Assembly: GCA_964227855.1 (NCBI GenBank)
Contig: CAXQWT010000116.1
Location: 1 to 55,010 of the forward strand
DNA length: 55,010 nt
Origin: Salipiger bermudensis
GTDB taxonomy: Archaea > Thermoplasmatota > Poseidoniia > Poseidoniales > Poseidoniaceae
Direction of reading: 5' to 3'
The translations under genes were made by a program, and so were the position numbers. The notes under the pieces are model-generated. The model saw nothing but the letters and a program-made list of their open reading frames with translations. It had not been told where the DNA came from and did not search any database. This document shows, one piece after another, positions 4,284 to 49,753 of the stretch. How positions within the stretch are numbered: the first letter of the stretch is position 1; the number at the start of each line of letters is the position of its first letter.

Positions 4284-4342
4284 AACCATCCGTCGTCGGT
4301 GTCGTATTTGAAACGCTTGGCAATGCAATAACCTCAAAACGG

Positions 4343-7348: not shown

Positions 7349-7401
7349 ATGCCAACCCTAGAGTTGCTTGCTTGAAAGCATTCGCATGGTTCCAGAAGAT
7401 T

Positions 7402-7429
7402 GGGCCGGTGGCAGCAAGGCCACCGGCCC
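7402..7429 (-). terminator. Perfect 11-bp GC-rich hairpin downstream of the giant ORF
   Basis: The arms gggccggtggc (7402-7412) and gccaccggccc (7419-7429) enclose a 6-nt loop, 29 nt after the stop at 7458. No clear U-run follows, so terminator function is uncertain. Confidence 0.35.
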
Positions 7430-7457
7430 ATCAACTGTTCTCAGTCGTTCCTGAACT

Positions 7458-7991
7458 TCAGACGATCTTGTTGAACTCGAGCTCTTGGTACGTCTTGATG
7501 ACGGACCCTTCACCTGGACCTGGTTGGTAGGTGATACGGATGGTAGCATCCGTAAGCGCCTGACCATCAGGAGCGTGAGTTCGTACGAAGATTTGGTCTC
7601 CGATTCCGAAGGTAGATTCCTTGAAACTGCCTTGGTTCTCGACCTTGTCAACGAATGTCACAAACGCATCGCTGTTCGATGGATTGAATCCATAGACGTT
7701 GCTTGTGTTTGAGAGCAGTGTTGCGTAGGAGGTTCGAACACCATCTGAGTTGGTGTACAGGACTGTTACAGTAACAGCTGCTGTAGCCAATTCAGCTTCG
7801 GTTTGATCAACTGTGATTGCCCAGTATCCATCTGCAGTACCAAGTTCCTTGTTCTCGATGTCGAAGGTGACTCGAGGAACACCCAACTTTCCAGTCTCAG
7901 CGAGAGAAGATGCCCACACGTAGATTACACCAGAAAGGACGACAGTGATTGCAACCATAAGGATGGTAGCGATAACTGGGCTGACAGCCAT
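7458..7991 (-). other. Archaeal type IV pilin-like module (class III signal-peptide-type N-terminus plus ~150-aa domain), encoded in frame at the 3' end of the giant ORF
   Basis: The codons from the ATG at 7991 read MAVSPVIATILMVAITVVLSGVIYVWASSL..., the hallmark N-terminus of archaeal pilin-like (Pilin_N/DUF1628-type) proteins. It is preceded in frame by a TM helix (8055-8111) and an acidic linker (7992-8054). A GAGGA motif lies 4 nt upstream of this ATG. Confidence 0.6.
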
Positions 7992-10900
7992 TTCGTCCTC
8001 GACGATGCGTCGAGTGTCTTCTTCTTCTTCGTCTTCTTCTTCACGGCGGCTTGACATTGCAAGAGCGGTGACGAAGAAGCCAGCAAGGGCTACGACGACG
8101 AGGCTTGGTGCGAACGATGGAACGGATCCAATACCGCCACCGAGTTGAACTACGGATGGCAACTTGTCACCACTGCTGAGGAAGTCCTCAGAAGGCTTGT
8201 TCGCATGGTTGCAGGTTGTTGGGATTCCAGCGTCACTACCAACAGCGGATGCGTTGGAGAACATGACGTTGTTACACCAGTCACTGTCTTGGAGAAGTGG
8301 TCGGCGTTGCGACTCCTTCAATCCATCGTCACCGTATGCACCAGGCTTGGACCATTGGTCACCAACAACACCGCCACCATAGTTGATGTGGGATGTTGGA
8401 TCATCGGTCTGGAACCGTTGTGCTGGAGACTTTGACATGTCACACTCTGCGTCGAGACAGGTGAGGACATCCATCTCAACCCAGATGTATGGTGTGTCAC
8501 CGTTGCCGTTGTCGACAATGTAGACATATTCACTGACTGTGATGGTCTCGCCCCATTCTGGAGGTGTGATGTACATGACGTTCTCTGCTTCACCGTGACC
8601 TCCACTGGTGTGGAAGGTTACAGCCAACATGTGATCGTAGGTGTATGGTCCTTGATCTCCGCCAGCACCGACGTTGACTTCAACAGGTACGTAGGTACCA
8701 GTGAGGACGTTGTTGATGCCTAGGAAGTCAAATCCGACGACGTCATCGAAGTAGTAGTCTGCGACGAGTTCTCGAACGTTCTCAACACGGACACCAATCT
8801 CTTGCGTTGCAACACCTTGTTGGTAGCTTGCAATAGGCATGACTGCTGGGTCGTAGTTTGGCACATAACTTGGTGCAGTAGCAGTATCCTTGAGGACAAG
8901 GCGGATTTGACAGAAGTCAGATCCACTTGGTCCGATTTGGTGGATACCGTTGTTGTTCAAGTAATCGATTTCCCAAGCGTTAGCAGTGGTTGTTGCATCT
9001 GGAACGAGTGTAAAGACGAGGTTGTCTCCAACAATTTCAGTGCTGAAGTAGTTCTCGTACGTACACTGGTCTGTCGATTCAACAGTCCATGTTAAGTCAG
9101 CAGCGTTGTGGTCAATGTCGTACTTGACTGCAGACAGGTCGTAGGTCAAGTTGTTGGCATTGGTGTCATCTTCCATGAGGCTGATGGACCAAGGAGCAAC
9201 CGGAGTAGATCCGTTTGCTGCGGTAACAACTGCGCCTGTAGCAACATCCCAGTCGAGGACGACTGGAGCGTCGTTCACTGGGCTGACTGAGAAGTCAACA
9301 GTGTATTCATCTGCATCTTGGTTCTCTGCACCATCATCACTGAGTGTGAGTGTTACAGTACAGGTACCACCAAGTTCGTTACCGGTGTTCTCTGTAATGG
9401 TCAACTCGTTTGCAGTGACGGTTACACCGAATGCGATACATTCGGTTGGTACGGATGCACCCCAAGTGTAGACTTGGCGAACAGGGCTCTGCTCGTTGTC
9501 CATGTCACGGATGTACGACTTGCTTGCATTGGAGATGTCTCCAAGGAACTTGGAGACGCTACCGAATCCTTCAGGAACGATGTTCGTGTAAGCTCCGTCG
9601 TCGACGAAGACTGGCATACAATCAGGGCGTTCTGCATTACAGATTACTGGCTTGTCGTTGATGTTGTTGACTGTCAAGGTCATGTTCTTGGTGTCGGTCA
9701 AGCCGTGGCTGTCCGTAACAATGAACTCGAACTCGACAGTACCGAACTGATCGTCGAGAGGTGTGATGGTTACGGTGTGACCGTTCTTGTTCCAATCGAC
9801 CAAGACGTTGCTGTGGGCAACGGTTGTTCCCTCAGTGACGGTCCATGTGAGAGTTGCCTCATCATCTTGGACATCGTCTGCAAGGTTGGTCAAGGAGAAG
9901 GTGTATGCACCACTGTCCTCATCAACTGCATCATCTGCTAGAGTTGCTTGGATTTCAGGACATGCACGCTTGATGTCAACGGTGAGCTCTTGGTTGGTCG
10001 CCATCGAAACAGCGTCAACAGTTGCCCAGTCGTAAGCACAGTCAGCCTTTGTCTTGATCATCACATCGTAGTCCTTTGCAGGTCCTGCTGTTGTGGTACC
10101 CTTGTATGTACGGTAGACAAGAACTTCGTCGCTGATGGTTCCACTTTCAAGATCGTCATGAGTTGTCTCAATGGAGATGTACTCGCCAAGTGTTTGAACA
10201 CCTGTGGTAACGGTCTGAGTTGGGTGGACAGTCTGAATGTTCGCTGAACTGTCTTGGACGACAGCGACGATGTTCACTGCATCAGGAGTTCCACCAATTC
10301 GGCTGAATGGGATTGCAATTTCGAAGAAACCTGCAGTTGTTGTTCCCAAGTCAGCGTCAACAGCATCTGTGGACAAGGAGCTTGCACCCCAGCCAAGGAA
10401 TCCATTGGAGTAGAGATCCATGTTGGAGTCGCTTGTTGCCCAGAAGAGGTAGTCTGCTTGAACCGGTAGTGTGTGAGCACCGTTGAGGTTGTAACCAGTG
10501 TTTGAACCGCCAGCAACGACATCGAGGTAAATCAAGAGGTCGTTGTTGGTGAGGTCTTCACCAGTCATACCGATGTAGATTGCATCACCCTCACTGTATG
10601 TGACATAGAAGTCATTGGTTCCGTCTCCAGAGACCATACCAGGCATAGCATCGTCGGATGGGTTCAATGGCGTGTTACCAATCCAATCCGAGTCATCACC
10701 GTCAACAGCCATGATGTCTGGCTGGAAGGATGGTGAAACGTATGCAGCACGGGTTCCGTCAGTGGATACCAATGTCATACCAACCGCAGTTGCAGCACCT
10801 GTGAGGTGAGTTGCATCTAGGCTGAAGAGGTTCGCTTCGTCAATGGTTGCAGAGGATACAATGCTGATCTTCTGGTTGTCGAGCGTGTTACCGATACTGG

Positions 10901-13900
10901 TAACGTAGGCGTTCGAGCCAGCGTTGATTTGCGTTGTCGCTGCAGACCAGGTCAAGTTCTCAACCGATCCAACCGACTCGACAGCGTGGATAGCTGTTGT
11001 CGCTGTTGAGGTGCCGCCGTCCCATCGGAACTCGGTGTTCTCAGCATAGACACCAACGTCACCTGCTGCATCGAGTGGATAAATCCACGAATAGTCACCG
11101 TCAACCATGTAGAGGCCGGTACCGGTTGTTCCACCGTCAACGGATGCGCCAATTGCAGTGACTGTTGCACTGTCTGCGTAGACACCAGCAGTTGTTCCTG
11201 CGATGTCTGCATCTCCTGTGAGTAGGAGCGTTGCAGAGTCAACAGATACACCGTAAGCGTATCCTGCGACGGAGGTTCCATCGAGTGTGAGATCGTCTCC
11301 CGAGTTGAGGGATGAGATACCAATTGTGGAGGAAGCGCCTGTTCCAACGAAGGTTGAATCAACATCGCTTACATCACAACCATCGGTAACCATAGCGTTG
11401 TCACCGAGTGTAACTGCGTTCTCTCTGCTCTGGATGGTTACCTTATCACAGTCGTTGAAATCAAGTCCAACAGCGTTCGGTGCTGTTCGTCCAGCACTGA
11501 TACCGATGGTGTTGTTCTCAACAACAGGTCCTGAGTATCCACCAGCAGAGGTTCCGTAGTAGACAGCAATGTTCGCTCCACCGTCGCCCCATGTGTCAGT
11601 TACCTTGAGGCTGTACTGACCGGATGTGGTGTAAGAGGTAAGTCGTGCATAGAGGGTGTTCGAGTTGAACGACCCTGCTGCCCAGTTGTCCTTGGTTCCA
11701 TCAGGCTTGGTAATTTCAAGACCGATTTCACCGCCCCAACTGTCTGATTCAAGATCAACGTAGACTGTCACACCTGATGGGACCGTAAAGGTACATGTGC
11801 TCGATGTACGGTATGCATTGGATGCAATGGTACACAACGAGGTCGTTGGTGCAGGTGGGCTTGTAGCGTCTTCCATGTAGATTCCGCCGTCAGCGTCGAG
11901 CAACGAGTTGTTGGAAACAACACCGTATCCTGCATCGACTTCAATACCAGCTTCACCGTCTTCTGCGGTTCCGATGATTTCGTTGTTATCGATCTTGTAC
12001 GCTTGTACACCGTACATCTGGATAGCAGTCTGAGGACCGTTGAAGTAGTTGTCTTCAACTGTGATTCGCTTGTTTTGGCCACTGTAAGCCTGGAATCCTT
12101 CTTCAGATGATGTGCTGTTGAACCAGTTGCCGGTAACGAGTAGGTCATCAGCGTATCCATTCGATCCAACCCAAATGTCTCCGATTTCTCCACCGTCAAG
12201 GAATTCGTTTCCTTCGATGGTGAAGTTGTCAGCACCAAACTCGTTGGCGTTGTGGGTGTATGCGTATGGGCTTCGGACCAAGTAAACACCAACACCACAG
12301 TCGTTGAAGGTGCTGTCCTTGATGTACGAACCATCCGTACCCGTAATGTAGGTACAAACGTCAGTACTCTGGATAGCATTGTTCAATGGGGTGTATCCCT
12401 TGAAGTGGGTGACCGTTACGTTCTCCATCTGGAAGAAGTGAGACTCGTGGTCGTAATTGTTCCAAGAGGATTTGTATGCCATACCGCTAGCGATGGTAGC
12501 AACTGGATTCAGAGTTGTATCCTTGATCGAAATTGCCATTGCGTCGTAGACGTATCCAAGTTCGAGACCAGTTTGTTGACCGGTGTCAGGGTTCGTACCT
12601 ACTCCGTAAACTTCCGAATTGTGCATGTACAATTCTGGAGCGTTGCTACCGCTTGCAGCATACCAACGCTGTGTGTCGGAGAACGTGTATGAACCAGTGA
12701 CAAGAACCAATGTGTTGTTCCAGTTGTGCTCATCGTTGTCATCGAAGTAGAAGAACGGAATGTCCATCATGATCGTCTTACCTGACATGTCACCAGGTGT
12801 CGCAGCGTAGTATCCGTACTCCTTGTAAGTTCCACCGTTACCATCAGAGAGGTCACGGCTACCGCCTGTGCTGAGATATCCGGCACAGTTGGAAACCATT
12901 TCGTAGGATGTGCTGCTCCAGCTGTAACAGACACGAGCATCGATTCGATCGGTCAGTGTAATGCTTCCAGTGTTTCCACTCGCATCGTTTAATGAGAGGG
13001 TTTGGAAGGCATAGCGGAAGTCACCCTTGGTCGAAGTGTAATCAATCTTAGCGACTGTTACAGCTTCGTAACCAGCGAGGTCATCGTTGGTAGTTCCAGT
13101 TGAGTCAACACGGATTGTTCGGAACAGGATGCCTTCTGCATCACCGTTCGAATCGGTTGTGCTTGCTCCAGTGATCTTCTTGTTAACGTTCATCAAAACG
13201 ACGTTGGTGTCGGCCACTGCGTTGGAATCTGCCTGTAGGTTAATGGTGAGTTCTCGCATGCGCTCAAATCCACCAGTTCCCGTGACATCGACCTTGGTCG
13301 GATCAACGGTACCTTCGATGAAATCGACTTCGCTTGTTCCGGTAATCTTCACATCACTCAATGTGTTTGCGAAGGTGGAATCACTAACAGTGATGTCACC
13401 AGAACCTGCAGTCTCAATTCCTACATTGTTACCCGAGACGGTCACGCTGTTGAAGGAGACATCCTTTACAGTTTGAGGACCGTACTTGTACGCTGCACCG
13501 GCACTGTTTGTGATGGTTCCAGAGAGATCGCCTCCAAAGTCCTTCACGTAGTAGATACCAGCGTTGTTCTGACCGTCAAAGTCGATGTTGGTCATGTCCA
13601 TTTGTCCAGAACCTGAACTTGAGACAAGCATACCATAATCTCCGCCATCAACTGCAACATCGTTCATGGAAGCAGCTGTAGCACCAACGACTTCGATACC
13701 TTGATCGGTCGGCGAGGTGATGTCGATTCCGTCAAAGTTTCCGGAAGCGAAGTTACCGCCGATTGCGATACCGGTTTCTGCGCCAGTGATGGCACCGTTC
13801 TCAAAGGAAGCAGTACCACTGTCACGTAGGTAGTCACCAAGAGAACTTGGGTCGTTACCAACACGGGCAACGAGATCAAGTCGGTCTTGGTAGTTGTCTG

Positions 13901-16900
13901 CACGGTTGTGTAGAACGTCAACGTACATTGTTACTCCAGTGATCGATGAATCAGAGATGTCAACGATAGGGAAGGTCATACGAGCTCCCTGTCCTGGGTT
14001 CATGTAGTAGCTGTAAGCGTAATCCAAACAGATGTTGTAGTAACCACCGTATCCGACGTAGCCTTCAGGTGGCTTGTAGACACCTTGACCACCGTGGTAG
14101 GAGTTGTAGTAGTAACCCCAGTAGTGGTATGGGTAGGATCCGTAGGATGGGTTCGTGTCTTCACTGATTTCGCCCCAGCGGAATCCGAACTGGTCTGGGT
14201 AGTAGTAGTAACCTGGGTAGGAAACGTACTGTTGTGGACCTTGTGACCAGTATCTCCAGATGTAGTATAGGTAACCGTCAAAGGAACCGGTGTAGCCTGG
14301 ACCCCAACTGTAACCGTAGTCGTTGCAGTGCCATGATGCGACACCACCTTCACCACCAGCATAGGTAGCAGCTCCGTTTCCTGACTTAGGATCGCTTGAA
14401 CTGTATGGGTAGTAACCCAACTTGTCAGGTGTCGAGATGTTTTCTGAAACTTCTCCAGATCCATCATCGTAGGTGATTTCGATGTTCCATCGGTCGGTCA
14501 ACATGTAGTACTTGCTTGAAGCATAGTTGTATGTTGGGTGAGCGTTACCTCCACCGTAGATGGAGTTGGCTCCAACTTGTAGGTAGTCTCCTGAACCTAG
14601 GAATGCAGTGAGATCAACTGCATAGGTATGCCATCCAGTCGATTGTCCCGAGAGGGATGTCGAACGGTAGATGGTTGGTAGGCTCATACCTCCGTAGACG
14701 TCAACACCAACGGTGTTGTCTGTCGAGGTAAATCCATCGATTTGAGGAGCACCGTTGTAGGATTGGATACCAACAGCAGCGTTTGATACAGCGATGTTGC
14801 TGTATGCACCACTTGCTTGCTCGACCCAGAGGGCGGTACCTGTGTTTCCGACGTTGATAATGCTCGATGAATCGATGTTCGCAGAGCCGCCATCGATTTT
14901 GACCGTTGCCATTTCATCCGAAGTAGCAGAGGAACCATAGATGGTACCTGAGTTCTTCATGACGAGTGTAGCACCGTCACCGATGTAGAGTGCAGCACCT
15001 GTGGTAGAGTCTTGAGCGACGTCACGGACGGTACCGCCATCAACTTCGAGTATTCCATCTTGGACATCGATGTGAAGTGGGTATGTCGAGGATACAGCCT
15101 GGAGTGCACCAGTTGCAACGCTTGACTTACCGACGAGCAACTTTCCGCCGTTTGAGAGTGTCAAAACAGGCGTGCTTGTTGCTGTGGACTTCACTTTGAG
15201 AACAGCACCCATCAACTTGATGACACAACCGTTGAGGTTGAGATCTTCCGTCAATGTCATTGGCGTTCCGTCAAATTCGTAGATGGTGTGTCCAGCAGGT
15301 GTTGTACCGTTGGTTGGTAGACCGGCGCCAGTATCAGCGTCGACCCAGTTAGCCAACCAAGTACAATCCATGTTGGTTCCGTTGAAGTCAACAGGGGCAG
15401 GTTCGAGCAACATTGCAAACGAACTGCTAATGGTGAATCCACTGGTAGGATACCAAGCATCGACTGTTGTTGTTTCGTTCTGTCCAGCAGGACCGAACGC
15501 ACGGAGGTTGTGGTCGGAGTATGTGTTGCCGTTGCTGTCACCGGTGATGACCCAAACGTCAGCTTCTCCTGCTCCATCAGTGATGTGCGATCCAACCTCA
15601 AAGAGTTCGGAACCAGCGCTGTTAACGACGCTTGCACTGACGACGTGGCCGCTCTTGTTGACTTCCCAAATCTCTGTGACGCCGTTAACGTTGACGGCCT
15701 CGAGTCGGTAAGCACGGAGTTCCGCAAGTCCACCGAAGTAGGTCACTGCAGAACCAGAGTTGTAAACGTCACAGTCTCCAGTGTCTCCGTTGGAATCAGC
15801 ACAGTCGTTTCCGTTTTGGTCGACCTCAATCAGGCGGATGTCCGCGTTTGAACTACCGTATGCGAGGTAGACACCGTTTCCAGCGTTGGAACTCGTGATG
15901 CCGATGTTACCAAGGGTCATCTTGGAGTTACGAGCGTAGACGGCGTGGTCTGTGCTTGATGTGTGTGTCAACGAACCGCCATCGAAAATCATGGTGTTTG
16001 GAGCAGCACTGCTTGAACAGCTGCTGTACAAACGGTCTGAATCGATGGTTGTAGCATCAATGATCCATCCACAACCAGCGACACCGAATCGTCCGGAGTC
16101 AAGGTTGGTGACAACCATTGCATCAGTGGTGATTGCGTTACCAGAGAAGTCAATGTGACCTGCAGTAACATCAGCAAAGATCGATGGTTGCATGCGGTAG
16201 ATGAGCATGTCACCGGTGGTGACGTCGTTCATGATAGCATGGTCACCTGATGGACCGTTCGCCGTGCTTGAAGAGCCACCTGGAGCGATGGTCAAATCAG
16301 CACTTCCCCAATCCACTTCAGTCATGTTGATGTGACCAAGTGCGTTGATCGATGCGCTTGAGTAATCGTCAGCGTCGAAATTGAACAACTTGACTTCACT
16401 CGATACACCAAAGTCCGACGAGAAGACTGTACCGGATTGTGCAGTTCCCGATGTGACGGTAGCGGTAACGTTTGACACGGTGACATGTTGGAGATCGGTG
16501 TCAATCAAATTGACGTACGCGTTCTCAATGGTCACGTTCTCAACGTGGAGCATACCACCTGTTGAACCAGGGTAGTTGACAATCGCACCAGCCCATGATT
16601 CACCATCTGTGTTACAGTTGGTCATGGTACCTTCCTTGAACATTGCATTTGCGCTCGAAGGGAGGTTAATACATGCCTTGTCAGCACCGGAGATGCTGAA
16701 ATCGTTCATGGTAATGCCTGTTCCTTGACCGCTACCGTGACGGATTGCCGTCTCGACGTTGGTAAAGGTGACGTGGCTGAGCGTGAAGTTTCCAACGTTG
16801 CTGTTGGAGTAGCACGGTCGAGTACCACCAGAGCTGTCAGCACAGTATGCGTTGTAATCGCCATGGCGTGAACCAGCGGAGATCGCTGCTGTGCTTGTGT

Positions 16901-19900
16901 TGTTGAAGTCAACGTAGCTGAAGACGTGTCGGTTATCGGTACCGCCTGTAGTGGTACAGTCGTCCGTGAAGGACAGACCCTTCCACTCAGCGCCATTTTG
17001 TCCCTCGAAAAGGATGTGATGGCTTGCGTTTCCGGATGCCGTGACTGAATCACAAGAACCGTCAACAGAGATACCTTTGCCTTGTGCCACTTGGATGACA
17101 GTACCTGGCTCAATGGTCAGGTCGCCGCCAGTGACGGACAGGAAGTCGCCGTTCGGGCTGATTCGGTATGGTGAACCTTCGTTGTCCCAGATACACTCAA
17201 TGTTGTTTCCTGAACAATCGAGGTCACTGTCAATATCAGTTCCCTTTCCTTCGAATGGCATTGCACGGACATAAACACCACAATCGGTGTTGGTGTTATC
17301 GTAACAGTAGTAACTACCGTAGTAACTCCACCATGGTGCAATGGTTCCCGGTCGAGCAGCAGAGTTGCTCGAGTATGGCAATGCAGGCATGTTGGTTCCC
17401 CATGTTGTGATACCTCGCTCAAGAGCAGTTGAACCGCTGTCGATCATGTAGAGGTAACCGAGACGACCAATTCGAAGTCGGTCGTTGCTGTCATCACCAT
17501 CAAAGGACTTCTGGAAGTAATCGAACTTGAAACCTGATGGCAAATCGATGTTTGCGTTACATCCGGTCTTGTATTGGTTCCAGTAGTAGCTGTATGCACA
17601 GTAGTAACCTGTTGGACGTCCGTTGGATGTACCTGAGATAACTTCTGCAGCGTTGGTTACGGACTTGATTCCTGTTGAGAAGGTCTCGTATCCGTGGTCG
17701 TTACCGTCCGTAGAGATACGGAAGTTCGTGGTGTGAGGGTTGTTACCAGCCATGTATCCGCCACCAGGGTTTCGCATGGTGTCACCCTTGGTACGGGTGT
17801 GGTCCATGTATCCTACAGTAGCATAGTCGTAGTATGCGTTACATGAGGAATCATACTTGAACTCAATCTCATTGGTAACGTCATAGAAGATGACTTGGTA
17901 GTCACACAGGTATTGTGTGTTGTATCCCATGTCTCGCCATTCGACGATAAGCATCATGTTTGGATCACCGACTTCGAAGCTGTTCGCCGTCGTTGTCTTG
18001 GCGTTGGTTCCACTAGATGCTGTTGATGTGTCAACAGATGTTGCGTAGTATGTGATGTAATCGCCACGCTCAAAGTTGGAGAGTTCGACTGACCAGTCAC
18101 ACTCTGCGTCAACACAATCGGTCCGTTGTTTGTTACCGGCTGGATTGAGTTTCACAGCGGTGTACGAACCGTTGTTCACGCTGTAATAGAGCGTAGGACC
18201 TTCACCGATGGTGTTGTTCACGTTCAATCCTGATGGTGGATCACCAGCATCGGAAATTGTGTAGGTGAACGTACGAGACTTGCTGTGCGAATCTCGCATT
18301 TGTCCGTGGTCCATGGTTGGAGCGCTGGTATCCGGTGTTGGAGCAACATTTCCTACCTTGTAGGTTGTTGAACCAGAGGAAGCCATGCGTCCGTAGTAAC
18401 CTGCGCTAAGAGCGAATCCACTCCATCGGTAGGATGTGGAGTATGCGTAATAGTATCCGGAGGAACATCGTGCATTGGTGCTTGTAGAGCGGTAGAAGTA
18501 GTAGAAACCGTTTGTTCCTGCGCAGAGCCAGTTGGCCTTGGAGGTACTGTAGGTTCCGTTCCAATCAAACTTACCGAAGGTTCCTGTGATGTCAAGACCT
18601 GCTAGCGGGATGTTGTATGCAGCGGTGTAACCGTAAGTGCTTACTTGAGTAGCAGTGCTACCACCAGCGAGCTTGCCGGTTTCGATTTCTGGTGTTGAGT
18701 CACCAATACCGACCATACCCCAATTGTTGCCAGTGGAATCGTAGTGGTAAATGAGGTTCATCTGAGGACCGTTCTTTGCACTGATTGCAAGGAAACCGCC
18801 GTCACCTTGGTGCATCTCCATCATACCTGATCGAGTTCCACCGTAGCCGTTGTATCCACTGCTAGGGCTGGTTGTCCACTGCATCTTCCACTGTGAGTAG
18901 AAGTAGTACGAGGACGAGTAGAAACAGGAGTAACTACCTGTTCCACAGTTGGAGACATCCCACTCGAAGAGATACTCATCGCTGTGGTCGTAATAGGTCA
19001 TTTGTCGGTCGTGGTAACCTTGAGGGTTGTAGTAACTACCAGAGTGTACGTCCGTTTGTAGGACGGTGAACTTCTTGGCAGTTCCAGCGTTTGTTACATC
19101 GTCAACAAAGAACCAGTTGGCGTTTCCGGCAGTTTGAACCCATGTGGTTGGGTTGGTTGCAGATGCAGGCGGGGTTGGGTCGTAACCAACGTTCGCACCG
19201 CTTCCGCCAGTGTTCAAGTCTTGGAACTTCCAGTAGTACTCAACGTAGTCGCCTGCGCTGATGTCTGGTGTTGTCGCCTTGAAACGGCAATCGGTAGATG
19301 TCGTGCTGCAAGATTGAACCGTTGTCGCACTGACAGAGGTCCAGGTTGCGTTGTTGATGCTGTAGAACAACTTGACACCGTTTGTTGAGGTTGTATCAAT
19401 TCCAGAGAGGTCAGTCAACTTGGTGAAGAAGGTGCGCTCACCTTCGACGTAGGAAGTGAGACCTGAGTACGGTACGTGACTAGAAGTTGGGGCGTCCGTG
19501 TCAGATCCACCAGAGTAGATGACTTCGAGGTAGCTGTTGGAACCACCGCTGTTGTACGAGCGAGTGTAGATGTAGATGCTCGAGGTCATTCGAGCACCCA
19601 TTCCGACAGTACCGGAGTTCGATTGTGCGTTGATAATGTAGTTGTGAGAACCTGTGGAAGAAGAACATGCAGTTCCTTGTGCGTTGTTGTTGTCACAAAT
19701 TTCAGCAGTCTTCCAACCTGTACCTTGGGAGTAGGTACCTGCAGCAGCCGAGTTACCGATTGAGGAAATCAACTTACGCTCGTTGGTGTTCGAGTTCGAA
19801 CCAGACAACAAGTTCGCAGAGATTGCTCCGGAACAGGATGCAGAGGAAATACCGTAGTTGTATCGTGCGTCAGTACCACACGCTTCAAGAACTGTAGCGG

Positions 19901-21119
19901 TGATCGCTGTCGACGAAGAACTACCGTATCCGTAGTTAACGTATTGCTTCCAGTTGACTTCTTCAACGGTAGCACCGCTTGGTAGAGCAGACGAACTAGT
20001 GAACGTATACTTGTGCCAAGGGATGTAATAGTACGAGCCGTAGTAACGGTAGAGGTAAGCGTAGGTGTTGTTGTAACAGTAACCCCAGTAGATGTAACAG
20101 TATCCACGGTTCCCGCTGGTGACCTTGATGGTTGGGTCGAGAGCGAGCGGGAATGCTCGGTCTTCGGACATCAACCAATCCGAATCAACGGCGGTTGTGA
20201 GGAGGACCATTGGGCCGTAAACTTGGATAAAGTACGTTCCGATGTATGGTTCCATTCCACCGTCTTCGAGAACAACTGGCTCAGGGATGGTGGCCAGGAG
20301 TTCACCGGATTCGATATGGCGGATTTCAAGTTCGCCTTGTGTCGTGGTGATTTCTTCTCCGAGAGCTACACCGTCGAGGAATAGGCCGTAATCCATTGGA
20401 AGACGGATGGTCTCTGTCATACCGAAGTACGCTGAGATTTCGTCGAGAACTGGGCGCTCTTGGATGAGAAGGTTCTGCTTGACTTGAGTCGTGTCGACGG
20501 AGTAGTCGAGAGCAAAGCCTTCTGCGAGTGGGTAACGAATCACGTTTCCACCGACTTCAACGTCACCAGTTGCTGGAGCAGCATTGTATGGCATTGGAGC
20601 GGTTCCTGTGATATCGATGGTTACGAGCATTGGATTCAATCCAGTGACGATAGGATCGACGTACTGGTTTGGTTGGATGCTCACACCGTTGGCAACTTCT
20701 GCGCCGAATGTGGTCGTGAAGACGTTCTCGTTCACTTCCCACCCTTCTGGCGTTGCCATGATGTTGAGGTTGATGTCCTCAAAGGCCCCACTGTCAGCAA
20801 GGTAGTGCATTGGCTCATCACTTGTGAGCTGTGCAATCTTGCCATCCTCAGTGAGGAATCCCTTTGTGTTCGCCTGCCTCATACCCAGGAGTTCCTGAGT
20901 GGCATCGTACTCATAGGTTGTTTGTTCGATGGTCGCTGGCAACTTGAAGAAATCGTCAACTTCTGTGACGATCTCTGCATTGCTGACAGTATCGGTTGCT
21001 GTGTTGTCTACTAGGCTTGTCATTGGCATGAAGGCCATCAAAGCACATAGTAGAACGGCAATTCCGATTCCACCCATTGCGGTTTTCTTTTTCTTATTCT
21101 TGTTTCCCAACATAGTCAT
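7458..21119 (-). CDS. Giant (4,553 aa) secreted/anchored adhesin-like surface protein
   Basis: A single uninterrupted 13,662-nt ORF. The N-terminus is Lys-rich followed by a hydrophobic signal/anchor (NKNKKKKTAMGGIGIAVLLCALMAF). The sequence is rich in Thr/Ser/Gly/Asn/Asp/Tyr with many N-x-S/T sequons. It contains parallel beta-helix-like stretches (for example ITVEDNYFNG...IDNNEIIG...VSNNSLLDADGGIYME). A P-domain/PPC-like module carries DTWGDGG. Cadherin/VCBS-like junctions are present (VNDAPVV, NINDKPVI). A GGGGTGA SD lies just upstream, so the second ATG at 21113 may be the true start. Confidence 0.85.
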   Translation of the reverse strand: MTMLGNKNKKKKTAMGGIGIAVLLCALMAFMPMTSLVDNTATDTVSNAEIVTEVDDFFKLPATIEQTTYEYDATQELLGMRQANTKGFLTEDGKIAQLTSDEPMHYLADSGAFEDINLNIMATPEGWEVNENVFTTTFGAEVANGVSIQPNQYVDPIVTGLNPMLVTIDITGTAPMPYNAAPATGDVEVGGNVIRYPLAEGFALDYSVDTTQVKQNLLIQERPVLDEISAYFGMTETIRLPMDYGLFLDGVALGEEITTTQGELEIRHIESGELLATIPEPVVLEDGGMEPYIGTYFIQVYGPMVLLTTAVDSDWLMSEDRAFPLALDPTIKVTSGNRGYCYIYWGYCYNNTYAYLYRYYGSYYYIPWHKYTFTSSSALPSGATVEEVNWKQYVNYGYGSSSSTAITATVLEACGTDARYNYGISSASCSGAISANLLSGSNSNTNERKLISSIGNSAAAGTYSQGTGWKTAEICDNNNAQGTACSSSTGSHNYIINAQSNSGTVGMGARMTSSIYIYTRSYNSGGSNSYLEVIYSGGSDTDAPTSSHVPYSGLTSYVEGERTFFTKLTDLSGIDTTSTNGVKLFYSINNATWTSVSATTVQSCSTTSTDCRFKATTPDISAGDYVEYYWKFQDLNTGGSGANVGYDPTPPASATNPTTWVQTAGNANWFFVDDVTNAGTAKKFTVLQTDVHSGSYYNPQGYHDRQMTYYDHSDEYLFEWDVSNCGTGSYSCFYSSSYYFYSQWKMQWTTSPSSGYNGYGGTRSGMMEMHQGDGGFLAISAKNGPQMNLIYHYDSTGNNWGMVGIGDSTPEIETGKLAGGSTATQVSTYGYTAAYNIPLAGLDITGTFGKFDWNGTYSTSKANWLCAGTNGFYYFYRSTSTNARCSSGYYYAYSTSYRWSGFALSAGYYGRMASSGSTTYKVGNVAPTPDTSAPTMDHGQMRDSHSKSRTFTYTISDAGDPPSGLNVNNTIGEGPTLYYSVNNGSYTAVKLNPAGNKQRTDCVDAECDWSVELSNFERGDYITYYATSVDTSTASSGTNAKTTTANSFEVGDPNMMLIVEWRDMGYNTQYLCDYQVIFYDVTNEIEFKYDSSCNAYYDYATVGYMDHTRTKGDTMRNPGGGYMAGNNPHTTNFRISTDGNDHGYETFSTGIKSVTNAAEVISGTSNGRPTGYYCAYSYYWNQYKTGCNANIDLPSGFKFDYFQKSFDGDDSNDRLRIGRLGYLYMIDSGSTALERGITTWGTNMPALPYSSNSAARPGTIAPWWSYYGSYYCYDNTNTDCGVYVRAMPFEGKGTDIDSDLDCSGNNIECIWDNEGSPYRISPNGDFLSVTGGDLTIEPGTVIQVAQGKGISVDGSCDSVTASGNASHHILFEGQNGAEWKGLSFTDDCTTTGGTDNRHVFSYVDFNNTSTAAISAGSRHGDYNAYCADSSGGTRPCYSNSNVGNFTLSHVTFTNVETAIRHGSGQGTGITMNDFSISGADKACINLPSSANAMFKEGTMTNCNTDGESWAGAIVNYPGSTGGMLHVENVTIENAYVNLIDTDLQHVTVSNVTATVTSGTAQSGTVFSSDFGVSSEVKLFNFDADDYSSASINALGHINMTEVDWGSADLTIAPGGSSSTANGPSGDHAIMNDVTTGDMLIYRMQPSIFADVTAGHIDFSGNAITTDAMVVTNLDSGRFGVAGCGWIIDATTIDSDRLYSSCSSSAAPNTMIFDGGSLTHTSSTDHAVYARNSKMTLGNIGITSSNAGNGVYLAYGSSNADIRLIEVDQNGNDCADSNGDTGDCDVYNSGSAVTYFGGLAELRAYRLEAVNVNGVTEIWEVNKSGHVVSASVVNSAGSELFEVGSHITDGAGEADVWVITGDSNGNTYSDHNLRAFGPAGQNETTTVDAWYPTSGFTISSSFAMLLEPAPVDFNGTNMDCTWLANWVDADTGAGLPTNGTTPAGHTIYEFDGTPMTLTEDLNLNGCVIKLMGAVLKVKSTATSTPVLTLSNGGKLLVGKSSVATGALQAVSSTYPLHIDVQDGILEVDGGTVRDVAQDSTTGAALYIGDGATLVMKNSGTIYGSSATSDEMATVKIDGGSANIDSSSIINVGNTGTALWVEQASGAYSNIAVSNAAVGIQSYNGAPQIDGFTSTDNTVGVDVYGGMSLPTIYRSTSLSGQSTGWHTYAVDLTAFLGSGDYLQVGANSIYGGGNAHPTYNYASSKYYMLTDRWNIEITYDDGSGEVSENISTPDKLGYYPYSSSDPKSGNGAATYAGGEGGVASWHCNDYGYSWGPGYTGSFDGYLYYIWRYWSQGPQQYVSYPGYYYYPDQFGFRWGEISEDTNPSYGSYPYHYWGYYYNSYHGGQGVYKPPEGYVGYGGYYNICLDYAYSYYMNPGQGARMTFPIVDISDSSITGVTMYVDVLHNRADNYQDRLDLVARVGNDPSSLGDYLRDSGTASFENGAITGAETGIAIGGNFASGNFDGIDITSPTDQGIEVVGATAASMNDVAVDGGDYGMLVSSSGSGQMDMTNIDFDGQNNAGIYYVKDFGGDLSGTITNSAGAAYKYGPQTVKDVSFNSVTVSGNNVGIETAGSGDITVSDSTFANTLSDVKITGTSEVDFIEGTVDPTKVDVTGTGGFERMRELTINLQADSNAVADTNVVLMNVNKKITGASTTDSNGDAEGILFRTIRVDSTGTTNDDLAGYEAVTVAKIDYTSTKGDFRYAFQTLSLNDASGNTGSITLTDRIDARVCYSWSSTSYEMVSNCAGYLSTGGSRDLSDGNGGTYKEYGYYAATPGDMSGKTIMMDIPFFYFDDNDEHNWNNTLVLVTGSYTFSDTQRWYAASGSNAPELYMHNSEVYGVGTNPDTGQQTGLELGYVYDAMAISIKDTTLNPVATIASGMAYKSSWNNYDHESHFFQMENVTVTHFKGYTPLNNAIQSTDVCTYITGTDGSYIKDSTFNDCGVGVYLVRSPYAYTHNANEFGADNFTIEGNEFLDGGEIGDIWVGSNGYADDLLVTGNWFNSTSSEEGFQAYSGQNKRITVEDNYFNGPQTAIQMYGVQAYKIDNNEIIGTAEDGEAGIEVDAGYGVVSNNSLLDADGGIYMEDATSPPAPTTSLCTIASNAYRTSSTCTFTVPSGVTVYVDLESDSWGGEIGLEITKPDGTKDNWAAGSFNSNTLYARLTSYTTSGQYSLKVTDTWGDGGANIAVYYGTSAGGYSGPVVENNTIGISAGRTAPNAVGLDFNDCDKVTIQSRENAVTLGDNAMVTDGCDVSDVDSTFVGTGASSTIGISSLNSGDDLTLDGTSVAGYAYGVSVDSATLLLTGDADIAGTTAGVYADSATVTAIGASVDGGTTGTGLYMVDGDYSWIYPLDAAGDVGVYAENTEFRWDGGTSTATTAIHAVESVGSVENLTWSAATTQINAGSNAYVTSIGNTLDNQKISIVSSATIDEANLFSLDATHLTGAATAVGMTLVSTDGTRAAYVSPSFQPDIMAVDGDDSDWIGNTPLNPSDDAMPGMVSGDGTNDFYVTYSEGDAIYIGMTGEDLTNNDLLIYLDVVAGGSNTGYNLNGAHTLPVQADYLFWATSDSNMDLYSNGFLGWGASSLSTDAVDADLGTTTAGFFEIAIPFSRIGGTPDAVNIVAVVQDSSANIQTVHPTQTVTTGVQTLGEYISIETTHDDLESGTISDEVLVYRTYKGTTTAGPAKDYDVMIKTKADCAYDWATVDAVSMATNQELTVDIKRACPEIQATLADDAVDEDSGAYTFSLTNLADDVQDDEATLTWTVTEGTTVAHSNVLVDWNKNGHTVTITPLDDQFGTVEFEFIVTDSHGLTDTKNMTLTVNNINDKPVICNAERPDCMPVFVDDGAYTNIVPEGFGSVSKFLGDISNASKSYIRDMDNEQSPVRQVYTWGASVPTECIAFGVTVTANELTITENTGNELGGTCTVTLTLSDDGAENQDADEYTVDFSVSPVNDAPVVLDWDVATGAVVTAANGSTPVAPWSISLMEDDTNANNLTYDLSAVKYDIDHNAADLTWTVESTDQCTYENYFSTEIVGDNLVFTLVPDATTTANAWEIDYLNNNGIHQIGPSGSDFCQIRLVLKDTATAPSYVPNYDPAVMPIASYQQGVATQEIGVRVENVRELVADYYFDDVVGFDFLGINNVLTGTYVPVEVNVGAGGDQGPYTYDHMLAVTFHTSGGHGEAENVMYITPPEWGETITVSEYVYIVDNGNGDTPYIWVEMDVLTCLDAECDMSKSPAQRFQTDDPTSHINYGGGVVGDQWSKPGAYGDDGLKESQRRPLLQDSDWCNNVMFSNASAVGSDAGIPTTCNHANKPSEDFLSSGDKLPSVVQLGGGIGSVPSFAPSLVVVALAGFFVTALAMSSRREEEDEEEEDTRRIVEDEMAVSPVIATILMVAITVVLSGVIYVWASSLAETGKLGVPRVTFDIENKELGTADGYWAITVDQTEAELATAAVTVTVLYTNSDGVRTSYATLLSNTSNVYGFNPSNSDAFVTFVDKVENQGSFKESTFGIGDQIFVRTHAPDGQALTDATIRITYQPGPGEGSVIKTYQELEFNKIV

Positions 21120-42032: not shown

Positions 42033-43835
42033 CTAGACTCCAAAGACGGAAGAGGCTCCCTCAAGCAGAACTGCAGTAACCCACGATGTTATTCCCGCAA
42101 TCCAGAGCAACGTAATCGCTTGTCCTGCTGCGCTCGTTTTTCCACCACCACGAAGACGAGTTGCAATGGCCGAGACAGCAATGATCTGTCCTAGAACGAG
42201 GATTGAAACGATAACCTTGAACATACGGATGTTGTCTTCAACAGAGGAGGCATCCTCCATAACGGGGAGTGCAATACCACTTCCAAAGTCTTGCAATGAA
42301 CCTACATCGGTTGATGCAAGTCCGGTAGCTACACCTGCAATTGCTTCACCCAACTGCAAAACAATCGAAATGGTCACGTTGAGAGATGTTACACTCGCAA
42401 TAAGAAGGCCAAGGGCTACTCCCCACATTGTGTTCGCTGAGAGGGCTCGGCGTCTCCTCAGGGAGAGAAGGTTACCTACAGAACGTGAGACCATCTCAGC
42501 GGTCTCTGCTGGTTTACCCGAAGATTGAGACCCTTCGATGTAGATTCGAGTGTAGCGTGAGATAACAGCAGAGTTCGTATCCGCATTGAAGTAATCCCAT
42601 GCACGGTCGGAATCAATGCGTGTTGCAAGTCGGCGTTCAAGTCGATCGATGGAAGCGTCGAGCATTCCGAAATCAACACCGCGAAGCGCTTTGATTGTGG
42701 CAGAAGGTTCTGCACTTCGGGCCTGAGCTGTACCTCCTAAGGCTCGGATAAAATCGGGATAAGCCCCATCACGACGTTGCACATTCCCCTCCTCGCGACT
42801 GATCAACCATGCTGGAATCAGTAGAGGTGAGAGTGGAGCTGCAAGGAGAATGAGTCCGTATCGATCCCATTGTGAACTGATTTCCTCCCAAGTTGAGACA
42901 ACAACAAATGTTGTAACGAGCAAGAGAATCAAAGACACTGCTCCAGCCGAGAGAATCGACCGTGTGAAATTGATTCGGAACGGTGTATCCAATTCATCTC
43001 GAGCGAAGATAAGATCGCGCGGAATGGTTGCTCGAAACGCCATCATAGCACCTACTTGGATGACGATAAACAACATCGATGCAAGCAAGAGGAATCGCAA
43101 CCGAGAAGCGACTTCAATCGGTGTATCATTTTCACTACCGACTTCAAAGAGAACAAGGTGGATTCCTGCAATCACCAATCCGAAGAGTCCTGCAGTGACC
43201 AATGAGACGTAGATTTCCTGCATTGTATCGACACTTTCCAAACGTGTGTCGTACAGCGTGTTGTATTGTTCTGCAACCGTTTCTTGTTCAGATCGCATGA
43301 ATTCATCGATGGGTTGACCTGCTTCGATGGAAAACGCCATTCGGTCAAGGAAATCTGTCCAAAGTGGACTTGGACTTTGTTGGGCAACAATTCGTGCTGC
43401 CTCCGGGAGAGATGTGTGCCATTTGTCGACAAGTGTTTCAATGCGTTGAACTTCAGAAGCCAATTCACCATAATCTCTCATTTGTTTGAGAATATCGAAG
43501 ATAGTTTGTGCACCAACTTCCCCCAAGGAGAGAATACCCATACGAGTGATGAACATGTGCATTTCTCGTTCTATGAGATTTGCTGAACGAGTGACTTCAA
43601 GCAAAGGGAAGGCCATCGCAGCTCCTGCTGCGATAATTGGAAGCAAGAACAACAGGAGGATTCCTGATAACCCGCCGAAGAGGGCGCCTTCAGCAAAGCC
43701 TCCAGTGAGGAAGATCAACAGAAGCGATGCAAGGAGACCGCCTGCGAATGCTCCACCAACGTAGACGGCGATGAATCTGCCCACCGGCATCTCAAGCCGA
43801 CGAATGGCTATTTGCCACATCGGCATTCGTTCCAA
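42033..43835 (-). CDS. arlJ: Archaellum assembly platform membrane protein ArlJ (FlaJ)
   Basis: A 600-aa polytopic protein with two cytoplasmic T2SS-F-like regions. It occupies the last position of the arl operon, immediately after arlI. A GGAGGGGA SD lies 6 nt before the TTG at 43835. Confidence 0.85.
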   Translation of the reverse strand: MERMPMWQIAIRRLEMPVGRFIAVYVGGAFAGGLLASLLLIFLTGGFAEGALFGGLSGILLLFLLPIIAAGAAMAFPLLEVTRSANLIEREMHMFITRMGILSLGEVGAQTIFDILKQMRDYGELASEVQRIETLVDKWHTSLPEAARIVAQQSPSPLWTDFLDRMAFSIEAGQPIDEFMRSEQETVAEQYNTLYDTRLESVDTMQEIYVSLVTAGLFGLVIAGIHLVLFEVGSENDTPIEVASRLRFLLLASMLFIVIQVGAMMAFRATIPRDLIFARDELDTPFRINFTRSILSAGAVSLILLLVTTFVVVSTWEEISSQWDRYGLILLAAPLSPLLIPAWLISREEGNVQRRDGAYPDFIRALGGTAQARSAEPSATIKALRGVDFGMLDASIDRLERRLATRIDSDRAWDYFNADTNSAVISRYTRIYIEGSQSSGKPAETAEMVSRSVGNLLSLRRRRALSANTMWGVALGLLIASVTSLNVTISIVLQLGEAIAGVATGLASTDVGSLQDFGSGIALPVMEDASSVEDNIRMFKVIVSILVLGQIIAVSAIATRLRGGGKTSAAGQAITLLWIAGITSWVTAVLLEGASSVFGV

Positions 43836-43849
43836 CGTTCATCCCCTCC

Positions 43850-45568
43850 TCACTTGTGATTGACGCCAACCCATGAATCGACGGCGCTGTCAAAATATTC
43901 CCAACCACTGTTGTAGTAAATATTGAGCAAATCAAAGACGTCGTCGTAGTGGGTTAGGTCACGGTCTGCCATTCGCTCAATGGCAGCAGCACGTCGTAGC
44001 ATTTCGTCGTAAATGTCACGTTTGTTGGAAAAACCTGCCATGGCCGCAATCTTGTTTTCTAAAAGGTGAGATTGAAACATACCACGGAAGTAATGCTTGT
44101 CTTTGACAGGGTCCCACTCAAACATACCTCTTGTAAGGACACCATCACTGTGTTTGTTGTAACCAATGACTTCGTCAATTCCCGTAACACGACGAGCAAT
44201 CCCACCACCTGGTGCTTCAACAACTTCTTGGAAAATTGCAAAATTGAGGTTGTCAAAGAAACGAATAGGAACGTTGATTGGATCACCTGTGAAACGTTGA
44301 ATCATTTTCACAATCGATGAGGCGTGGAAGGTTGCGATAACAGGGTGACCTGTTTGCATCGCTTGGAATGCAGTTGCACCCTCAACACCACGAATTTCAC
44401 CAATGATGATGTAACGCGGTCGAGAACGCAGAGCAGCCTTGAGAAGGTCAAACATTTCGACACGTGAGTCTTCGTTCTTTGAGTCACGTGTAACAAGGCG
44501 TTGCCAAATCTTGTGACGAACCTTAACTTCAGGGGTGTCTTCTGCAGAGTAGATTTTGACATTGTGATCGATGAATGGAAGGATAGCGTTGAGCGTCGTA
44601 GTCTTACCTGACGCTGTTTCTCCGGATACCAAGACGGACATCCCATACTCAAGGCAAATCCAGATGTAAGCTGCTTGTTGGGCACTCATGGTACCCCACT
44701 TAATGAGTTGAATAACGGAAATGGTTTCCTCAGCAAATTTACGAATGGTGAACGATGGACCCAACATCGATACGTCGTCTGAGAAAATGATGTTGATACG
44801 TGAACCGTCAAGAAGGGCACCGTCGATGATTGGTTTGTTATCCGATACCGGGCGACCAATACGTTCGGACATGGCACGTAGGTATCGAGAGAGAATCTCA
44901 CGTTCTCTGAAACGGATGTTGGATGTGACCATTCCAAACACTTTGTGATCCATATGGATATGTTTCAGTCCTACAGAGTGGATATCTTCCAGCATCTCGT
45001 CAGAGAGGAGAGTTTCGAGTGGCCCGTTTCGAATCAGGTCACGGATGACGATGTAACGCAAACGTTCTCGCTGTGTTTCAGAAACGACGATACGTTTGTC
45101 GTCAAGTCCAACAAGTTCCCAAATTCGGCCACGTCGGCGTGAAACAATGCTTGCTTCAGCCTCAGAAATCGTGTATCGATCAATCATTTGGCCAAGAATT
45201 GTTTCAAACTCTGAATCTGTGGTAAACGACGGTGCTGAGGGCGCTTCTTGCAACAAGGTTTCAACCAAGTCACGGCGAATGTTCTCTTCTTCTTCGTTGA
45301 GTTGAGGTTCCAAACCAAACCAGAGGACTTGTCCACCTCCCTCCTCATCGCTTGGAGGTTCATAGATGTGTACGAATACAGGTTCCTTTGTGATGTAGAT
45401 GAGATTCAGCGGTCGTTGCTTTTTCGCATCTCTATCGAGAGGACCGTAGTAAATAGGGCGGGTACCGTACCTCTTCTCGAAATCTCGGACCCAATCCGCA
45501 ACGTGGCTGTGAGCAGCCATGACAGAGGCGAGATCGCCTCGTTGAAATTTGAGTTCTTCATCAGCCAT
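43850..45568 (-). CDS. arlI: Archaellum motor/assembly ATPase ArlI (FlaI), type II/IV secretion ATPase family
   Basis: Walker A is SGETASGKTTTLNA. Asp/His-box regions are present (PRYIIIGEIRGVEG...MQTGHPVIATFHA). A GAGGTGA SD lies 4 nt upstream. Confidence 0.93.
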   Translation of the reverse strand: MADEELKFQRGDLASVMAAHSHVADWVRDFEKRYGTRPIYYGPLDRDAKKQRPLNLIYITKEPVFVHIYEPPSDEEGGGQVLWFGLEPQLNEEEENIRRDLVETLLQEAPSAPSFTTDSEFETILGQMIDRYTISEAEASIVSRRRGRIWELVGLDDKRIVVSETQRERLRYIVIRDLIRNGPLETLLSDEMLEDIHSVGLKHIHMDHKVFGMVTSNIRFREREILSRYLRAMSERIGRPVSDNKPIIDGALLDGSRINIIFSDDVSMLGPSFTIRKFAEETISVIQLIKWGTMSAQQAAYIWICLEYGMSVLVSGETASGKTTTLNAILPFIDHNVKIYSAEDTPEVKVRHKIWQRLVTRDSKNEDSRVEMFDLLKAALRSRPRYIIIGEIRGVEGATAFQAMQTGHPVIATFHASSIVKMIQRFTGDPINVPIRFFDNLNFAIFQEVVEAPGGGIARRVTGIDEVIGYNKHSDGVLTRGMFEWDPVKDKHYFRGMFQSHLLENKIAAMAGFSNKRDIYDEMLRRAAAIERMADRDLTHYDDVFDLLNIYYNSGWEYFDSAVDSWVGVNHK

Positions 45569-45577
45569 GATCTCACC

Positions 45578-46784: not shown

Positions 46785-46793
46785 TGAATCCCC

Positions 46794-47453: not shown

Positions 47454-47456
47454 GCA

Positions 47457-48302: not shown

Positions 48303-48355
48303 GGTACAACCTCCTGTGCTTGACCTGCAAGAAGCAAGTCATTGCACAGGCAGAC

Positions 48356-49012: not shown

Positions 49013-49022
49013 GTTAATCACC

Positions 49023-49697: not shown

Positions 49698-49753
49698 TTT
49701 TTTCACCTTTTTTTACTCGTCCTCCCTCATCCGAGGGTGGAATGGGATGTGGG

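Follow-up and report, generated by a model that had tools for sequence, protein, structure and literature searches.

A type IV pilin module at an internal position in a giant adhesin-like protein conserved across Marine Group II archaea (Poseidoniales)

Organization of the giant gene

The DNA analyzed is a stretch of 55,010 nucleotides (hereafter the window), covering positions 1 to 55,010 of the forward strand of contig CAXQWT010000116.1 in GenBank assembly GCA_964227855.1, filed under Salipiger bermudensis and assigned by GTDB to the Poseidoniaceae within the order Poseidoniales. It encodes a giant exported adhesin-like protein whose open reading frame (ORF) continues without a stop through a hydrophobic transmembrane (TM) helix (TM1), an acidic linker of 21 aa, and, beginning approximately 4,376 residues into the protein, a module with a Pilin_N/class III signal (Table 1). 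This fusion is one gene conserved across the Poseidoniales, the archaea of Marine Group II (MGII). The translated elements follow the order ...GGGIGSVPSF, APSLVVVALAGFFVTALAM, SSRREEEDEEEEDTRRIVEDE, MAVSPVIATILMVAITVVLSGVIYVWASSL (from the ATG at 7991), and approximately 150 further residues up to the TGA stop codon at 7458-7460; all the elements listed in an earlier note, made from the letters of this DNA, were recovered from the ORF list and translation.

A Kyte-Doolittle scan of the whole giant protein identified three hydrophobic segments only, at residues 18-36, 4336-4354, and 4382-4400. The first is probably a Sec signal or signal anchor and resembling N-termini were found in the relatives P0176, P0225, and P0199. 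The sole ectodomain module recognized by Pfam was an Ig/cadherin-like domain at residues 3721-3818, for which Big_9 scored 28.8 bits against a cutoff of 23.6 and Cadherin_5 scored 23 bits, under its cutoff. A membrane-proximal region (residues 4174-4336) displayed invariant W/N/N and Cys positions in the alignments and was modeled by AlphaFold2 (AF2) with a predicted local distance difference test (pLDDT) score of 75-89. The N-terminal hydrophobic segment, the Big_9 match, and the TM1 anchor are features of giant surface adhesins, and the protein is a putative adhesin.

Conservation of the fusion among Poseidoniales

A search with the last 380 residues returned 243 proteins, dozens of which spanned the junction with 94-100% query coverage and 40-75% identity, and a scan of GTDB species representatives identified 535 stretches encoding a relative. 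The best 80 of these 535 loci plus two from long-read assemblies constituted the 82 loci examined. The frame was open through TM1, linker, and helix in all 82 Poseidoniales loci, a recurrence that places the arrangement far beyond chance; in approximately 75 of them the ORF extended past the start of the stretch taken, and approximately 50 loci with a full 10-kb flank encoded >3,500 residues upstream of the helix. The 15 homologues that were aligned (40-75% identity) were likewise all fused in frame. Full-length relatives of 4539, 4572, 4595, 4640, and 5559 aa carried Lys-rich N-terminal signal peptides like that of the window protein, and the relatives originated from Candidatus Poseidoniaceae, Poseidonia, and Thalassarchaeaceae metagenome-assembled genomes (MAGs), i.e., from Marine Group II. 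Across the family clusters P0001-P0109, the acidic linker lay directly upstream of the helix in 107 of 109, the two exceptions being P0017, whose upstream sequence is unrelated (a probable frameshift or chimera), and P0062, which is cut short ahead of TM1. A stand-alone copy of the giant protein's pilin domain was absent from these clusters, and no other AVSPV-type helix was identified in the window and 87 loci outside the giant family and the stand-alone pilins that had been fetched on purpose.

Gene calls of 400-650 aa annotated as pilins on long contigs were considered as shorter versions of the protein and rejected as assembly artefacts, as they came from nanopore assemblies in which the neighboring genes were also broken by frameshifts. 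In two such nanopore/pilon assemblies (L001 and L002), the giant gene and the genes for the PolD small subunit and Pelota were split into several ORFs by frameshifts. Separately, the MAG Poseidonia sp. JJ.4 contained two copies of the 3' part of the giant gene (L056 and L057) with 84% nucleotide identity over 7.6 kb, which represent either paralogues or two strains binned together.

The earlier note had also raised the possibility of two adjacent genes, with the pilin translated alone from the ATG at 7991 and the frame continuous because a stop codon had been lost, the triplet tract had suffered an indel, or the assembly or sequencing was in error. This ATG is preceded by GAGGA at a distance of 4 nt, and its Met occupies position -2 relative to the predicted cleavage site, as in 25 of 62 distinct junctions; the others have A (17), T (10), or L, V, G, Q, or S, such that the start codon is missing in most lineages. 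The other frequent linker Met is present because -7 is a conserved hydrophobic position (I/M/L/F), and 13 of the 62 linkers are free of Met. GAGGA itself is accounted for by the Glu-Asp codons of the conserved acidic motif, and the period-3, GAA-type triplet tract at 8017-8042 changes length in frame only, fitting linker lengths of 18-22 residues. No TATA-like A/T-rich stretch was seen by eye in the G+C-rich 150 nt upstream. As the independent loci, drawn from many assemblies, displayed neither a stop nor a separate gene at the junction in any orthologue, and the globular domain had no stand-alone copy among the family clusters, a separate gene, lost stop, or assembly error was rejected as a general explanation and is considered very improbable. 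Occasional extra internal initiation is possible in the Met-bearing lineages. A Red Sea metatranscriptome reported an MG-II DUF1628 gene as the seventh most abundant transcription start site on euryarchaeal contigs, a gene that may be either a stand-alone pilin or the giant-gene module (PMC5069720).

Pilin identity and fold of the C-terminal module

The C-terminal module is a genuine archaeal type IV pilin/class III signal module. Profile hidden Markov models, proposed as a check in the earlier note, matched the module above cutoff with both Pfam PF07790 Pilin_N (35.8 bits, E=1.5e-8, gathering cutoff 25.2) and NCBIfam TIGR02537 arch_flag_Nterm, the archaellin/type IV pilin N-terminal domain (35.5 bits, cutoff 20), confirming the archaeal type IV pilin N-terminus that the note had recognized from the sequence. 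Among all PDB sequences, the top match was the pilus subunit 8fj5 (E=2.9e-5), identified as Haloferax volcanii PilA2 (PMC10334743), followed by the filament-forming Natrinema PilA2/PilA1 (8gi2 and 9myg). In the alignment to the haloarchaeal pilin, IVEDEMA↓VSPVIATILMVAITVVL falls on DEERA↓VSPVIGVILMVAITVIL (arrows mark the scissile bond, here and below). Against P0110, a stand-alone MGII pilin, hhalign gave the module family a probability of 99%.

Structure prediction of the C-terminal part yielded mean pLDDT values of 80.5 with a 101-sequence alignment and 81.6 with a 59-sequence alignment. In both models, TM1 and the pilin helix form long helices and are accompanied by a beta-sandwich with pLDDT >90. 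The closest PDB structures by Foldseek were the Cuniculiplasma divulgatum filament 8rey, the archaellins 9eq7/7ofq/9i5h, and the FlaF soluble domain 4p94 (E 5.6e-4 for the latter), with probabilities of ~1.0, E values of 3e-4 to 1e-3, and modest TM-scores (0.38-0.47). The block is therefore related to pilins by both sequence and fold and is not a common anchor domain unrelated to them, an outcome that the earlier note had left open. The identity of the module as a FlaF/FlaG-type archaellum stator was also considered and rejected, as the profile comparison of the module family with the ArlF- and ArlG-like ORFs of the window revealed no relation (hhalign probability 0.2-2%) and the gene lies 21 kb from the archaellum operon.

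Cleavage motif and selection at the junction

The peptide across the junction of the giant protein (...IVEDEMAVSPVIATI...) contains a class III cleavage-type motif with its predicted scissile bond at A4378↓V4379, between nt 7986 and 7985. In the consensus, the junction opens with Arg-Arg (RR) and a stretch of acidic residues; a hydrophobic position at -7 is followed by x, [DE], D, [ED], x, and A, after which comes VSPVIATILMVAITVVLSGVIYVWASSLA. Ala was present at -1 in 62 of 62 distinct junctions and Asp at -4 in 56 of 62, with E, D, or N at -3, and the linker from RR to the -1 Ala had a net charge of -5 to -9 across relatives. The motif D-[ED]-x-A↓VSPVIATILMVAITVVLSGVIYVWASSLA was kept at the protein level with synonymous codons varying freely, and approximately 30 helix residues were invariant in 81 distinct nucleotide sequences that used 2-5 synonymous codons per residue. 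With its residues fixed and its codons free, the helix is under protein-level purifying selection, and its invariance is not due to recent ancestry or gene conversion; the constraint on it, far above that on TM1, speaks for a partner in common with other proteins and against a role in anchoring only.

A search of the full library with the 31-residue helix identified 167 representatives, 142 of which were new. In 125 of the new representatives the helix was located at residues ~10-40 behind leaders such as MKNENRNEEA↓VSPV, with A (99), G (19), or S (7) at -1 and E/D at -3 in 109. The 14 representatives with an internal helix belonged without exception to the giant family, and in the 11 with an intact C-terminus 173-194 residues separated the pre-helix Ala from the end of the protein.

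The two archaellins encoded in the window carry the leaders ...ENDNLA↓AIGIG and ...KQDELA↓AIGIG, with acidic residues at -3/-4, an uncharged -2, and Ala at -1 in contrast to the textbook K/R-G site. By homology with the canonical G↓ASGIGTLIVFIA, these sites require the local peptidase to tolerate an uncharged -2 in D-[EN]-x-A, and the D-E-M-A of the module is of the same type. The archaellin leaders hint at a lineage-specific motif recognized by the class III peptidase of MGII. In Natrinema PilA1/2 (DEERA↓VSPVIG), residues 1-18 were missing from the assembled pilus resolved by cryo-EM (PMC12426801), placing the cut at A18↓V19, i.e., at the same A↓VSP bond as in the module. Class III sites generally require G, A, or S at -1, all class III substrates are usually served by one peptidase, and the H-domain is essential for assembly (PMC4371748). 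The module presents both an accepted -1 residue before the H-domain and the site type of same-lineage substrates; its position departs from the class III pattern of an extreme N-terminus after a short charged leader, as the site lies at residue 4378 of 4553, with an ectodomain, a TM helix, and a loop of net acidic charge ahead of it. The linker resembles a cytoplasmic C-terminal tail, such as that ending the neighboring 1049-aa surface protein (...SRGGGDGEDKDWDY), joined to a prepilin leader minus its start codon, a likeness that hints at an old gene fusion in which the processing site was retained.

A family-wide motif at the outer boundary of TM1

A (V/A)(P/A)SFAP motif was observed family-wide at the outer boundary of TM1, with S-F-A-P invariant or nearly so; it was present in 97 of the family clusters, nine others begin within TM1, and P0083 is garbled there. 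It fits no known sorting-signal model and is a possible protease or sortase-like recognition site or a structural cap. The earlier note had pointed to a loose likeness with PGF-CTERM/archaeosortase signals, and such a signal, or a rhomboid-type site, made up of SFAP, the helix, and RR could release or lipid-anchor the ectodomain, alone or besides a prepilin cut. The invariant S-F-A-P at the outer membrane boundary, the ~20 hydrophobic residues, and the RR do loosely recall tripartite CTERM signals. However, an NCBIfam scan of residues 4307-4376, CTERM models included, gave no match at E<=1, and the tripartite signal of PGF-CTERM proteins is found at the extreme C-terminus whereas 198 residues follow TM1 here. 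In addition, no other protein of the window or loci carried SFAP (two further matches were out-of-frame noise), the neighboring 1049-aa surface protein has a plain TM segment and acidic tail without it, and no archaeosortase was seen in the window. A sorting signal at TM1 is consequently judged unlikely.

Genomic context

The giant gene is the last of four same-strand genes that may form an operon, the others coding for an ABC ATPase, a MacB/FtsX-type permease, and the 1049-aa surface protein (Table 1). A perfect inverted repeat begins 28 nt past the giant-gene stop codon and ahead of a same-strand HAD hydrolase gene, and is a possible transcript end or stabilizer for the whole unit. The archaellum operon was the sole type IV filament machinery seen in the window. 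Directly upstream of it, 50727-54896 (-) encodes a protein of 1389 aa that combines NPCBM-associated/NEW3 Ig-like domains with several TM segments at its C-terminal end, beside a 330-aa coiled-coil/NEW3-like protein at 49754-50746; both NEW3-type proteins may be archaellum-associated envelope proteins.

Table 1. Coordinates of the giant gene, its elements, and further features of the window (minus sign, reverse strand).
Feature	Position	Strand	Description and basis
Giant exported adhesin-like surface protein, whole ORF	7458..21119	-	4553 aa, ATG start, C-terminal TM-linker-pilin module; ORF list and translation
N-terminal hydrophobic segment	21012..21068	-	Residues 18-36, preceded by a Lys-rich start; Kyte-Doolittle scan
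Ig-like/cadherin-like domain	9666..9959	-	Residues 3721-3818; Pfam
Membrane-proximal ectodomain region, conserved	8112..8600	-	Residues 4174-4336; alignments
VPSFAPS motif, outer edge of TM1	8103..8123	-	Alignments; S-F-A-P invariant or nearly so
TM1, stop-transfer helix APSLVVVALAGFFVTALAM	8055..8111	-	Residues 4337-4355; translation and Kyte-Doolittle scan, helix in both AF2 models
Acidic cytoplasmic linker SSRREEEDEEEEDTRRIVEDE	7992..8054	-	21 aa, RR at its start
Class III cleavage-type motif D-E-M-A	7986..7997	-	Residues 4375-4378; junction alignment
Pilin H-domain helix VSPVIATILMVAITVVLSGVIYVWASSLA	7899..7985	-	Residues 4379-4407; Pilin_N and TIGR02537 matches
Beta-sandwich globular domain of pilin module	7479..7871	-	Residues 4417-4547; AF2
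Perfect 12-bp inverted repeat	7401..7430	.	TGGGCCGGTGGC / GCCACCGGCCCA, 6-nt loop, G+C-rich
Surface protein	21450-24599	-	1049 aa, plain C-terminal TM segment and acidic tail
MacB/FtsX-type permease	24734-29242	-	1502 aa, large extracytoplasmic domains
ABC ATPase	29245-29937	-	Upstream of giant ORF
Archaellum operon	42033..49706	-	Pfam/NCBIfam scans of ORFs
ArlJ/T2SSF	42033-43835	-	
ArlI/T2SSE	43850-45568	-	
ArlH	45578-46303	-	
Arch_flagellin-family protein	46296-46784	-	162 aa, without archaellin leader; probably ArlG/ArlF-type
ArlF-like protein	46794-47453	-	
Two archaellins	48356-49030 and 49023-49706	-	Class III signals, D-[EN]-L-A sites

Proposed processing and topology

The data are consistent with an implied topology of outside, TM, cytoplasmic loop, TM, outside, which together with the internal pilin module in a giant exported protein formed the core of the earlier interpretation and is upheld here. 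In the proposed mechanism, Sec would export the 4,336-residue ectodomain, TM1 would halt transfer, and approximately 20 acidic residues would remain in the cytoplasm. The pilin helix would then re-insert with its N-terminus in and C-terminus out, carrying the 150-aa beta-sandwich outside, and a prepilin/prearchaellin peptidase would most likely cut A4378↓V4379 at the cytoplasmic face. The products would be a giant adhesin with type-I anchoring and an acidic tail of 23 residues, and a 175-residue mature pilin-like subunit, made at the same place and in a 1:1 ratio with the adhesin. As the invariant H-domain of this subunit is the same as that of other class III proteins, it could enter the same type IV-filament-like assembly. 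On the sequence evidence, a prepilin peptidase cut that yields an anchored adhesin plus a mature pilin-like subunit from the precursor is given about an even chance. The fuller proposal, in which after an internal prepilin cut in a polytopic precursor the subunit would join a type IV-filament-like envelope structure alongside the other class III proteins of the cell, coupling particle adhesion physically and stoichiometrically to the type IV filament machinery, is more tentative and falls a little short of that.

Several observations weigh against such processing. The linker is strongly acidic, whereas textbook class III signals have a short basic leader, and access of the peptidase to the site could be hindered by the preceding TM helix. 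The literature searched contains no prepilin peptidase cut at a site preceded by another TM helix, and we know of none. Pfam scans identified no A24 prepilin peptidase gene among 30 ORFs of the window, so that the peptidase is presumed to be present in the cell from the archaellum operon alone, and no pilus locus or peptidase was found beside the stand-alone MGII pilins P0110 and P0112, whose genes are neighbored by those for glycosyltransferases and housekeeping functions. Finally, FlaF, one of the best fold matches, is a membrane-anchored envelope binder and not a filament subunit.

Some of these observations also favor the main rival reading, in which the protein stays uncut as a two-helix hairpin anchor, with the pilin-like helix as the second span and the FlaF/archaellin-like beta-sandwich binding the S-layer or the protein's own membrane-proximal domain to strengthen anchoring against pulling. 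FlaF, whose pilin-like N-terminal helix is retained as a membrane anchor and which binds the S-layer, ranks among the top structural matches; the conserved G/F/V/L positions of TM1 could reflect packing on a second helix; and both the lack of pilus machinery encoded near the giant gene or the stand-alone pilins and the lack of a literature precedent for an internal prepilin cut would be expected. A hairpin would, however, leave unexplained the -1 Ala of every distinct junction and the D/E at -3 and -4, as well as the near-identity of the helix, with free synonymous codons, to the 125 N-terminal class III proteins. The module also has no sequence relation to the ArlF/ArlG-like proteins of the window, and its nearest sequence relatives are filament-forming, processed pilins. 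An uncut hairpin is regarded as possible though less likely than the cut. Of the two options that the earlier note had set side by side, both survive, and the evidence at the cleavage site favors the polyprotein cut by a prepilin peptidase.

Implications for class III signals and MGII surface proteins

The pilin and its class III signal are known; what is new is that their location is internal, following a giant passenger and a TM helix, and is conserved. No description of the fusion, of internal class III signals, or of MGII pilins was found in the searchable literature, and the fusion is undescribed in MGII comparative genomics (Rinke 2018, PMC6461757), in the census of archaeal type IV pili (Makarova 2016, PMC4858521), and in a 2026 preprint on archaeal type IV filament systems. 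By definition and in prediction (FlaFind-type rules), class III signals are N-terminal. An internal class III site shared by a whole family and retaining all its cleavage determinants would either widen the substrate rules of prepilin peptidases or represent reuse of a pilin helix as a hairpin anchor, and a cleaved precursor would give the class III signal pathway its first polyprotein substrate.

The Poseidoniales are the most abundant planktonic archaea of the surface oceans, and particle adhesion is thought to shape their niche (PMC6461757, PMC4511931). The giant gene ties the largest adhesin-like protein of this order to the pilin/archaellum pathway. Fragments of the gene on short contigs were labeled "type IV pilin" or "flagellin-like protein" at NCBI and JGI, so that MGII pilin and flagellin counts in metagenomes and metatranscriptomes may partly count the tails of giant adhesins.

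Comparison with known systems

Bacterial modular pilins of the Streptococcus sanguinis PilB/PilC type and autotransporters combine an adhesive module and an envelope- or filament-embedding module in one polypeptide, as in the giant protein. The autotransporter passenger is N-terminal to the anchoring domain, the order observed here, and is sometimes cut from it, although the anchor is a beta-barrel in the outer membrane. In modular pilins the pilin part comes first and no extra TM helix is needed, unlike in the giant protein. To our knowledge, neither system uses an internal prepilin-type signal. The FlaF/ArlF and FlaG/ArlG stators are membrane-anchored envelope binders with a pilin/archaellin-derived helix and a beta-sandwich whose fold is like that of the module; the module differs in keeping the canonical A↓VSP site and in being encoded outside the archaellum operon, 21 kb away.

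The haloarchaeal Pilin_N (DUF1628) adhesion pilins, i.e., Haloferax volcanii PilA1-6 and Natrinema PilA1/PilA2, share with the module a near-identical junction and H-domain, D-[ED]-x-A↓VSPVI[AG].ILMVAITV[VI]L, and a helix followed by a beta-rich globular domain, with the globular domains alignable over the first strands only. Haloarchaea and MGII are also alike in encoding several proteins per genome with an almost invariant H-domain, and haloarchaeal pilin genes are not linked to assembly genes (PMC4371748), as here. The haloarchaeal pilins are 145-165 aa with the signal at the extreme N-terminus, whereas in the giant protein 4,376 residues including an ectodomain and a TM helix come before it.

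Among the stand-alone MGII class III proteins, P0112 and P0113 (loci L086 and L087) combined a PstS-like phosphate/solute-binding domain with the class III signal in one protein and had no assembly genes nearby; they are reminiscent of Sulfolobus bindosome subunits. The stand-alone proteins (P0110 and P0112/P0113) have the same lineage-specific helix, AVSPVIATILMVAITVVL[SA]GV[IL]YVWASSLAE, and the same acidic x-A↓ site as the giant protein. They differ in carrying the signal at residues ~10-40 behind a leader such as MKNENRNEEA, with any extra domains C-terminal to the helix, such that, of 150 representatives, those with this helix far from the N-terminus all belong to the giant family.

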